Positions 44,086 through 45,068 of a stretch of 64,000 bases of DNA are shown in pieces. The notes under the pieces are model-generated. The model searched no databases. It was not told the DNA's origin and saw only the letters and a list, made by a program, of their open reading frames with translations. Numbering within the stretch: position 1 is the stretch's first letter; each line of letters starts with the position of its first letter. The position numbers and the translations under genes are program-made. The stretch is from a virus (lineage: Duplodnaviria; Heunggongvirae; Uroviricota; Caudoviricetes): IMG/VR virus record IMGVR_UViG_3300042922_001472. One strand, 5' to 3'.

Positions 44086-44854
44086 GAGGTGCACTTAAGA
44101 CTACATTTTGAAAAAAATACAGGATTATCTAATAATACAAATATTTCAGGGGTATATAATAATAAATACGCCTGGATAAAAAAGTCTTAACATTAATTCC
44201 TTATATTAAAATTTACTTGACGATGGGTGGTAAAATCGTTCCATGTGAGTTGATGTACAACTCCGTTTAGGTGGTTAGGGCGATTAAATCACTATTATGA
44301 AACTCGTTTCGGGGTGCTTTCAAGACTACATTAATTTGAGATTTTTTAAGAGATAGAAATATCAAGTTATATTAACGGAAGTTGATATAACAGTAATAAG
44401 TAAAACAAATGTCTTGAACCAATTTTCTCTGAAATTTATTTTTGAGGTGCATACAAGATTACATTAAAACAAGAATGGTATCTATTTAAAATAGAAATTA
44501 TCAGATATTGAATATCAGATAATTATTTAAAACGAATTACGTATCAAGTATGTAATATTTGATATGTAATAAGAAAGAATTAAATCCAGATTAAAAATCT
44601 GAGATTTATTTGTATCTTGTGATAATTTTCCTTAAAACTAAAACTTAGAAAAAACGGTTAGACCGTTTGGCATTAGGGGATACGTTCTATTAATGTTTAA
44701 ATAAAATTAAATACCATTGTGGGGTGCTGTTAAGACTACATTCATTTGAAAATAAAATTAAAGATATTTAGTTACCCAATAGGGGTAACATTGCTGTCTT
44801 AATACACTTTTCCCTACTAAATCAATCAATAAGAGGTGCTGGAAAGACTACATT
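44086..44854 (+). repeat. array of five conserved 22-nt motifs (A/G)GGGTGC-N4-AAGA(C/T)TACATT with unique 90-255 bp spacers (candidate small-RNA array)
   Basis: Copies at 44086-44107, 44311-44332, 44444-44465, 44721-44742 and 44833-44854. Degenerate copies near 44172-44194 and 44545-44562. The 1.35-kb region has no ORF. Confidence 0.6.
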
Positions 44855-45035
44855 TAAAAATTTAAAATCATACAAATTATAAAAATAATTTTTTGAATTA
44901 AACAATTTAGTGTAGAAATACCCAGATAGAACAAAGAAAACTTTTTGATAATAGAAATAAATTTTGCAAAAATTTATTAATCGTAATCAACAGTCTTTCC
45001 GAAATTTTCCTTTTATTATGTATTGAGTAAAAATT

Positions 45036-45068
45036 AGGGATAAGCCAAAAATGACTTATCCTTTTATA
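45036..45068 (+). terminator. intrinsic terminator-like hairpin just upstream of the Ro60-fusion gene
   Basis: GGATAAG-loop-CTTATCC followed by TTTTAT, 55 nt before the start codon. Confidence 0.5.

Follow-up and report, generated by a model that had tools for sequence, protein, structure and literature searches.

A 64,000-nt stretch of the IMG/VR virus record IMGVR_UViG_3300042922_001472, referred to here as the window, contains a non-coding region directly upstream of a plus-strand gene for a 991-aa Ro60-like protein. This region is probably a non-coding operon, in which one promoter would give rise to a ~1.1-kb precursor with five Y-RNA-like modules ahead of the Ro60-like gene. The five modules form an array of units that share a covarying fold on the plus strand, and the family to which they belong is linked almost exclusively to Ro60-like genes and includes sister units of the YrlA type. 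The units are best read as a divergent Firmicute and megaplasmid branch of the known bacterial Y RNAs, distinguished by a handle sequence of its own, by large arrays and by exchanged modules. An initial annotation of the window had proposed a Y-RNA-like small-RNA array next to a Ro60-type gene, and the covarying helices, the linkage and the YrlA-type sisters support that proposal.

Motif array upstream of the Ro60-like gene

The pattern RGGTGC-N4-AAGAYTACATT has five exact matches in the window, all on the plus strand, at 44087, 44312, 44445, 44722 and 44834 (spacings of 225, 133, 277 and 112 nt). The 64 kb hold just two further matches, with three mismatches each. When the window was dinucleotide-shuffled, a mean of 0.51 matches was obtained at up to three mismatches, and none of 100 shuffles reached seven. 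As read from the sequence, the motif begins with G(A/G)GGTGC and its copies span 44086–44854.

The initial annotation had placed the five copies and their spacings correctly and had misspelled the 5′ end as (A/G)GGGTGC. Of the two decayed copies that it listed, the one near 44182 (GTCTTAA) is the 3′ partner of AAGAC in unit 1, i.e. the 3′ strand of helix P2 described below, and the one near 44545 is hairpin sequence within unit 3; a covariance model finds five units only. The TTTGA(A/G) that it had noted behind three copies is no family feature, positions +21 to +25 being variable. Its view that the array is not a CRISPR was borne out by the irregular spacing of 112–277 nt and the lack of cas matches among eight flanking proteins; a CRISPR-DR hit scored 18.4 bits against a gathering score of 37 (E = 7.6). 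The region was also correctly described as free of open reading frames (ORFs), since none of at least 40 aa occurs between 43774 and 45121 except a 49-aa minus-strand ORF overlapping the start of the 991-aa gene. Short ORFs behind the Shine-Dalgarno-like GAGGTG were considered and rejected, as the frames, read by eye, have 1–23 codons, share no start and are not conserved.

Shared fold of the units

Each motif copy makes up the 5′ half of a folded unit. A unit alignment revealed a second conserved block, GTCTT followed by TTTCCYT, ~60–200 nt 3′ of each motif. In the first helix (P1), GRGG and the three preceding bases pair with CCYY and the three following bases. In the second (P2), NNN-AAGAY pairs with RUCUU-NNN located 60–200 nt downstream, and the variable domain lies between the two P2 strands. 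P1 and P2 are separated by an asymmetric internal loop with UGC-N on the 5′ side and N3-4-UUUU on the 3′ side. UGC and UACAUU are invariant and unpaired, the latter directly following the 5′ strand of P2.

RNAalifold, applied to an unguided MAFFT alignment of 27 units from nine loci, gave precisely these two helices, P1 with 6 bp and P2 with 8 bp. Double compensatory changes were present in 7 of these 14 pairs. Paired cells amounted to 97.1%, as compared with 81.2% in column shuffles, none of 500 of which reached the observed value; the covariation score was 0.533 versus 0.212, and sliding the partner by 1–3 columns dropped pairing to 43–62%. About 32 of 377 cells (~8%) are G-U. These would read as A-C mismatches on the opposite strand, and hence the plus strand is the functional one. 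A partner search recovered all 14 pairs in 28 of 43 units, as against 12 of 860 controls with shuffled 5′ strands. In minimum free energy (MFE) folds of the five window units, P1 was formed in all five and P2 was complete in four and partial in unit 3; z-scores against shuffles were –3.1 to –4.2 for the three units tested. Folding of the units with their flanks, which the initial annotation had suggested as a way to find a conserved helix holding the motif, thus led to P1 and P2, both of which covary.

A covariance model, R1, was built from the 27-unit RNAalifold alignment and detected the five units of the window, with no further hit in the 64 kb. Across the 49 units that have at least 13 of the 14 P1/P2 pairs, G-R-G-G-U-G-C, A-A-G-A-Y-U-A-C-A-U-U and U-C-U-U are invariant, and the 3′ strand of the internal loop is rich in pyrimidines, mostly ending in UUUU. 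Unit length in this set ranges from 62 to 277 nt, and the inserts of the family are highly diverse (9 to ~260 nt). A long terminal stem with conserved sequence and an internal loop is also what bacterial Y RNAs generally have.

Unit 1 (44079–44208; plus strand, as are all five; R1 63.7 bits, E = 2.4e-12) folds at MFE into P1 and P2 (z = –4.2), with P1 formed by AUAUGAGG and CCUUAUAU, P2 by UUAAGAC and GUCUUAA, and an insert of 76 nt. Unit 2 (44304–44436; R1 75.8 bits, E = 3.2e-15; MFE z = –3.7) pairs UUUCGGGG with CUCUGAAA in P1 and UUCAAGAC with GUCUUGAA in P2, and its insert holds two hairpins. Its P2 includes the compensated UCAAGAC/GUCUUGA. Unit 3 (44437–44639) adjoins unit 2 and gave 14 of 14 pairs in the partner search. 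Its low R1 score (17.4 bits, E = 0.28) is due to the long insert of 148 nt, which contains three hairpins; P2 is ACAAGAU/AUCUUGU, in which C-to-U and G-to-A changes compensate each other (AAGAU/AUCUU). Unit 4 (44714–44821; R1 69.9 bits, E = 8.2e-14; MFE z = –3.1) has P1 GUGGGG/CCCUAC, P2 UGUUAAGAC/GUCUUAAUA and an insert of 53 nt with one 7-bp hairpin. Its 5′ core is similar to those of the penultimate units of the related loci L004 and L005. Unit 5 (44826–45018) adjoins unit 4, gave 14 of 14 pairs in the partner search and shows P1 and P2 in the MFE fold (R1 25.3 bits, E = 0.0037). P1 is AUAAGAGG/CCUUUUAU, the insert is 138 nt long, and P2, GGAAAGAC/GUCUUUCC, is again compensated.

The spacers at 44209–44303 (95 nt) and 44640–44713 (74 nt) gave no match to R1, and the second holds a small hairpin, ACGGT-TAG-ACCGT. 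Both could be processing sites, remnants or internal terminators.

Linkage to Ro60-like genes

A scan with a Ro60-like profile, limited to one genome per species, gave 10 loci, from Bacillus, Aneurinibacillus, Clostridiaceae, Acetivibrio, Pseudobacteroides, Treponema, other spirochaetes and unclassified Bacillota. The motif was present in nine of them in 1–10 copies, the tenth being a locus without upstream DNA. The motifs always lie on the strand of the Ro60-like gene and within ~3 kb upstream of it, and R1 found the units confined to the upstream arrays. Standalone homologues with upstream units include those of Bacillus, Paenibacillus, Clostridia and spirochaetes. All 61 R1 hits in 35 metagenome loci were on the same strand as the gene and 60 were upstream of it; 19 of the 22 such loci having at least 1 kb of upstream DNA carry units. 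The invariant handle is kept down to ~33–40% protein identity, always beside a Ro60-like gene.

The nearest relatives, L103 and L104, have four strong units each, and plasmid BTB_502p of B. thuringiensis Bt407 (L105) has three. On this plasmid (NC_018878.1), the units occupy the complement strand at ~361243–361166, 360759–360633 and 360598–360433, and the TROVE gene is BTB_RS30805 (358730–360310). The clade resides on megaplasmids of 0.4–0.7 Mb in Paenibacillus polymyxa, Brevibacillus, Aneurinibacillus and B. thuringiensis. In the Bacillus locus L004, 10 motif copies (7109–9521; array of ~2.6 kb) lie inside a 3.1-kb ORF-free gap. In the window, the units at 44079–45018 precede the Ro60-like ORF, which starts at 45122 on the same strand, well within the ~4 kb expected of Y RNAs. 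The linkage between the motif and the TROVE gene was thereby upheld: the units are not scattered in the window, and in relatives they are found upstream of Ro60-like genes.

A scan of IMG/VR with the motif pattern gave 88 loci with one hit each, a total near the chance level estimated by hand. According to the model, real units among these pattern hits (which include L014–L093) are those of L041, L077 and perhaps L058. Eight similar partial hits were rejected as DNA coding for Walker A (P-loop): GGTGCNGGNAAGACTACATT also spells GxGKTT(L/F), and for this reason a pattern search alone is misleading for the motif. The search for phage relatives of this Ro60 clade gave nothing closer than distant Ro-like proteins encoded by actinophages and a haloarchaeal virus.

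L008, L010, L011, L013 and L041 have genuine tRNA genes among their units. In L013 (9034–9705, 11529–12203 and 7502–8885), from Pseudobacteroides cellulosolvens, the array is mixed with seven tRNA genes and an EF-Ts-like ORF. The Ro60-like gene of this locus lies directly 5′ of a PF09414 RNA ligase gene, which suggests an RNA-repair context. L041 is a viral contig of 9.7 kb with 28 tRNA genes in 5 kb (4257–9215), in which two minimal 74-nt units (6336–6409 and 8684–8757) are each located 3 nt 5′ of a tRNA-Val gene. In L077 (509–704), a T-arm-bearing unit abuts tRNA-Gln.

Relationship to known Y RNAs

YrlA is a permuted tRNA mimic on a Ro60-binding stem (PMC4201824; bioRxiv 10.1101/312249), and its variable loop begins with a conserved YUAY (PMC4201824). 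The M. smegmatis rsr gene is preceded by those for YrlA and YrlB, which are cut from one precursor, and a second Y RNA that does not carry the complete tRNA mimic is reported for each species (PMC4201824).

The variable inserts of clostridial and spirochaete units contain GGTTCGAATCC and TAGCTCAGTTGGTAGAGCA. In MFE folds, these sister units enclose within P2 and P1 a T arm of 5 bp with a 7-nt loop, which is followed by a closed hairpin of 7 bp and, after two bases, a D arm. The T arm was found in 26 of 105 units, as compared with 17 of 5250 shuffled inserts. The consensus of 18 T-arm units consists of P1, P2, the T arm, a closed 5–7-bp hairpin, 2 nt and the D arm, and has 27 pairs, 17 of which show compensatory changes; the D arm was deduced from alignments and folds of sampled units. 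The sister units thus share with YrlA the T arm, the closed acceptor-like hairpin, the D arm and their permuted order. Directly after P2, all 49 units have an invariant U-A-C preceded by a Y (C in 34 units, U in 15), in agreement with the YUAY junction of YrlA.

None of the five window units has a T arm, and hence they lack the apical domain of YrlA and are YrlB-like, i.e. a handle without the tRNA mimic. They fit the YrlB/Yrn2 type, which combines a Ro60-site stem with a non-tRNA hairpin domain; this type is loosely defined, and GNCGAA is absent from the units.

Like YrlA and YrlB of Salmonella Typhimurium and M. smegmatis, the units lie within a few kb of the Ro60 orthologue on the same strand, have 5′ and 3′ ends that pair, and combine a conserved 5′-strand motif and a short unpaired linker with a modular apical domain. 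They differ in that the 5′ motif is GRGGUGC-N4-AAGAYUACAUU rather than GNCGAAN0-1G. Characterised YrlA/YrlB loci encode one or two RNAs, whereas the arrays here reach 10 motif copies with inserts of 9 to ~260 nt. The hosts are also different, the present family being known, from sequence, on Firmicute megaplasmids and in Clostridia and spirochaetes. Instead of the RtcR/RtcBA context of YrlA/YrlB, an XRE repressor gene adjoins the array, and one locus has the PF09414 RNA ligase.

With Yrn1 and Yrn2 of Deinococcus radiodurans and the metazoan Y RNAs (RF00019), the units share a long terminal stem, a large variable internal effector domain and the presence of several Y RNAs in one genome; Deinococcus likewise encodes several small RNAs upstream of rsr. 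In contrast to these RNAs, the units show no similarity to the GGUCCGA/UUGACUA helix and no helix with a bulged C, and the GAC of the motif is on the 5′ strand, whereas that of metazoan Y RNAs is on the 3′ strand. A faint resemblance of GACUAC to the 3′ strand of the Ro-binding helix, proposed in the initial annotation, did not hold for the same reason, there being no match to UUGACUAGUC; YUAY of YrlA fits better. Phage and Firmicute-megaplasmid tRNA arrays are similar in being long same-strand runs of structured RNA genes that are co-transcribed and processed. They are distinguished from the window units, which have neither an anticodon arm nor a free acceptor end and whose closing stem is not that of a tRNA.

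Searches with Rfam 15 matched no unit at gathering score in the window or in eight other loci. At E values up to 10, no Y_RNA was found in the array region by this search, which the initial annotation had suggested, and the snR9, CRISPR-DR45 and BTnc060 hits were far below their thresholds. ARAGORN and Rfam RF00005 detected no tRNA or transfer-messenger RNA in the window, the genuine tRNAs being confined to related loci. Literature searches retrieved nothing on Ro60/Y RNA arrays in Firmicutes or in tRNA arrays, with the proviso that the tables of Chen et al. 2014 may list some tRNA-like members.

The Ro60-like protein

The gene for the 991-aa protein (45122–48097, plus strand) was identified by a vWA_Ro60 match and by a C-terminal family profile. 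Pfam reports a Ro60-type vWA domain at the C-terminus of the protein and nothing else. The C-terminal half (~490 to 991), comprising TROVE and vWA, groups with standalone proteins of ~525 aa annotated as 'RNA-binding' or 'TROVE'. The family profile of this part matches X. laevis Ro60 (1yvp) with E = 4e-20, both the TROVE ring and vWA being covered; it also matches 9nen, 9l5y and 2nvo over TROVE and vWA, and human, phage and Deinococcus Ro60 are among the matches.

Residues 31 to ~483 correspond to the cytoplasmic ATPase domain of a type IV coupling protein (T4CP; TraG/VirD4). This segment is 69% identical to residues 151–630 of a coupling-protein paralogue encoded elsewhere in the same metagenome-assembled genome, from which it differs by a degenerate Walker A (GSTGADKTS versus GPTGSGKTS) and a 19-residue deletion. 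Residues 1–30 align with the N-terminus of standalone Ro60-like proteins, and the match resumes at DFKETLAEFF after the ATPase domain. As both flanking parts align with standalone proteins, the 991-aa ORF represents a Ro60-like gene into which a further domain has been inserted in frame. The peptide KET is present at both ends of the insert. Among 5.8 billion proteins no other full-length fusion was found, and only the protein's own entry covers its full length.

The 991-aa protein is the presumed partner of the unit RNAs. Y RNAs typically depend on Ro60 to remain stable. The paralogous T4CP loci L001–L003 contain no units, and no T4CP gene is present within 10 kb of the standalone Ro60-like loci. 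The unit RNAs therefore go with the Ro60 part of the protein, and a link between them and the T4CP-like domain was rejected.

Control elements and neighbouring genes

An 85-aa XRE/Cro-type helix-turn-helix repressor is encoded on the minus strand at 43516–43773 (Pfam HTH_26, E = 2.4e-13). Orthologues with 67–73% identity occupy the same divergent position in L004, L005 and L006, the three closest genome loci, and in L103 a 79-aa minus-strand ORF, to which no family was assigned, lies in place of this gene. A sigma-A-type promoter, TTGACA-16 nt-TATAAT with an extended –10 TG, is located on the plus strand at 43890–43917 (12/12 consensus match). The statement that no promoter precedes each unit is thus true, and a single perfect promoter precedes the whole array. 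Upstream of unit 1 in relatives, TTGACA...TACAAT is found in L103 and TTGACT...TAATTT in L105.

Between the promoter and unit 1, a 47-nt direct repeat occurs in two copies on the plus strand (43959–44005 and 44033–44079; 81% identity, 74-nt spacing), each of which contains the palindrome ATAATTAAATTAT. From their sequence and position, the repeats are candidate XRE operators or secondary promoters.

A plus-strand hairpin followed by UUUUAUAUU (45036–45061) lies between the array and the 991-aa gene. A terminator scan reports it on the minus strand, on which a G-T wobble closes the stem. Clearer plus-strand hairpins are present at the same place in L103 (~1340–1375) and L105 (~7826–7880), and in all three loci the hairpin lies between the end of the array and the Ro60-like gene's ribosome-binding site. 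The terminator-like hairpin noted earlier before the fusion gene was thus confirmed, with counterparts in relatives, and judging from the sequence it is likely a terminator or attenuator of the non-coding transcript. In L004 (9802–9872) and the Aneurinibacillus locus L005 (9791–9858), the last unit is followed, ahead of the Ro60-like gene, by an aberrant tRNA-like gene, in the place where the window has just the hairpin. ARAGORN assigns it a 2-nt 'anticodon', and the Rfam tRNA model scores it at 49 bits.

In the window, a gene for RecG helicase is located a few kb upstream of the array and one for RNase R is also nearby (36808–38853 and 39920–42067), and on BTB_502p a RecG gene (L105, 2116–4104) is likewise a few kb upstream of the array. 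Ro60 and Y RNA work together with 3′–5′ exoribonucleases; the proximity of RNase R and RecG to the array may be a coincidence. Downstream genes at 49084–52903 encode a DUF1173 protein (377 aa) and unknown proteins of ~256 and ~450 aa. They are syntenic with the contig of the closest relative (L102, 4241–10688) and absent from other loci, and are taken as lineage-specific rather than core parts. PADLOC defence models gave nothing for the 991-aa protein, and eight flanking proteins had no defence-system or cas matches; two neighbouring proteins gave marginal hits only (AbiEi, E = 0.0017; PDC-M69A, E = 0.004).

Proposed pathway and alternative explanations

The promoter at 43890–43917, which faces away from the XRE gene, would drive a single precursor of ~1.1 kb that ends or is attenuated at the hairpin at 45036–45061. 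Synthesis of the array as one precursor is indicated by the fact that units 2 and 3 and units 4 and 5 abut within 0–5 nt, which leaves no room for promoters. Each module would close on itself via P1 (nnnGRGG/CCYYnnn) and P2 (NNN-AAGAY/RUCUU-NNN). In relatives, cleavage by RNase P and RNase Z would take place at interleaved or abutting tRNA genes. If the modules work as known Y RNAs do, the Ro60-like ring protein encoded next to them would bind their constant handle, and the differing apical inserts may serve as effector or gating modules that recruit partners or gate the ring.

Several points weigh against the interpretation as a Y RNA operon. No unit is present in 3 of the 22 metagenome loci whose upstream DNA is long enough, and a few units occur in phage-like tRNA arrays on short contigs without a Ro60 homologue (L041 and the 1.1 kb analysed of L077). 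The Ro60-recognition motifs GGUCCGA and GNCGAAN0-1G are absent from the 49 units, which have another invariant motif in their place, and neither Rfam 15 nor the searched literature holds a covariance model matching the units. The function of the protein in the window is uncertain, as the T4CP domain interrupts it after residue 30 and has a degenerate Walker A. Lastly, that the units are transcribed, processed and bound by protein is something we infer from the sequence.

The units might instead be cis-acting elements of the 5′ leader, through which the Ro60-like protein or another factor controls read-through of the hairpin, giving autoregulation and no free RNAs. The array does lie on the same strand directly upstream of the gene behind one promoter, with no promoters of individual units and with a terminator-like hairpin before the gene in the window, L103 and L105. 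This explanation is unlikely, though, in view of arrays as long as ~2.6 kb (10 motif copies, L004) and of the tRNA genes interleaved in L008, L010, L011 and L013. Many units hold complete tRNA-like modules, and some abut tRNAs in tRNA arrays, where RNase P would free them; for known Y RNAs encoded upstream of rsr, maturation from a precursor has been described (PMC4201824). A cis-leader role and a small-RNA role could also go together.

It is very unlikely that the units belong to tRNA arrays, as degenerate or permuted tRNA derivatives or processing punctuation, with the Ro60-like gene as a mere frequent passenger. The window, L004, L005, L103 and L105 have units and a Ro60-like gene with few or no tRNA genes, and the handle persists beside Ro60-like genes to the low protein identity given above. 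The mixing of tRNA genes with units in several loci and the T and D arms of sister units would be accounted for by such an origin, but the permuted tRNA-plus-stem design is that of Ro60-bound YrlA (PMC4201824). L041, with two units in its 28-tRNA array, and L077 have no detectable Ro60 homologue on the DNA analysed, but this DNA is short in both cases (9.7 and 1.1 kb).

Finally, double-stranded DNA sites (XRE operators, iterons or recombination sites) or single-stranded DNA signals for the coupling-protein-like domain in conjugation, which the adjoining XRE gene, the T4CP-like N-terminal half of the 991-aa protein and the direct repeats in one orientation might suggest and two of which (XRE sites and iterons) the initial annotation had listed, are highly improbable because the covariation is long-range and strand-specific, with compensatory changes between segments 60–250 nt apart and ~8% G-U pairs showing that the folded plus strand is constrained, and also because the tRNA-type T and D arms of sister units indicate RNA, no T4CP gene occurs within 10 kb in those standalone Ro60-like loci that have the largest arrays, and the palindromic 47-nt repeats beside the promoter are better operator candidates.

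Implications

The interpretation of the units as Y RNAs can be extended to a 'Y-RNA cassette' of mobile elements, in which a constant Ro60-binding handle with interchangeable cargo steers one Ro60-like ring to many RNA or protein targets. This extension is speculative and, on balance, improbable. Its cargo would be the tRNA mimics, hairpins and longer domains that are arrayed with tRNA genes on megaplasmids and phages, and its uses, if it is true, may be RNA repair, decoying or counter-defence against tRNA-targeting nucleases. The captured T4CP ATPase domain raises the possibility of an ATP-driven or secretion-linked Ro60 ribonucleoprotein.

Bacterial Y RNAs are known from few studied species, and their Ro60-binding determinants and effector modules are poorly understood. 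The present family offers a sharply defined invariant handle (UGC, AAGA/UCUU and UACAUU) and dozens of natural module swaps; with these and arrays of up to ten motif copies, the modular-tether model is directly testable. With this family, Y RNAs extend to Firmicutes and spirochaetes, among them the tractable B. thuringiensis Bt407, and Ro60/Y RNA biology is tied to the tRNA arrays of mobile elements.

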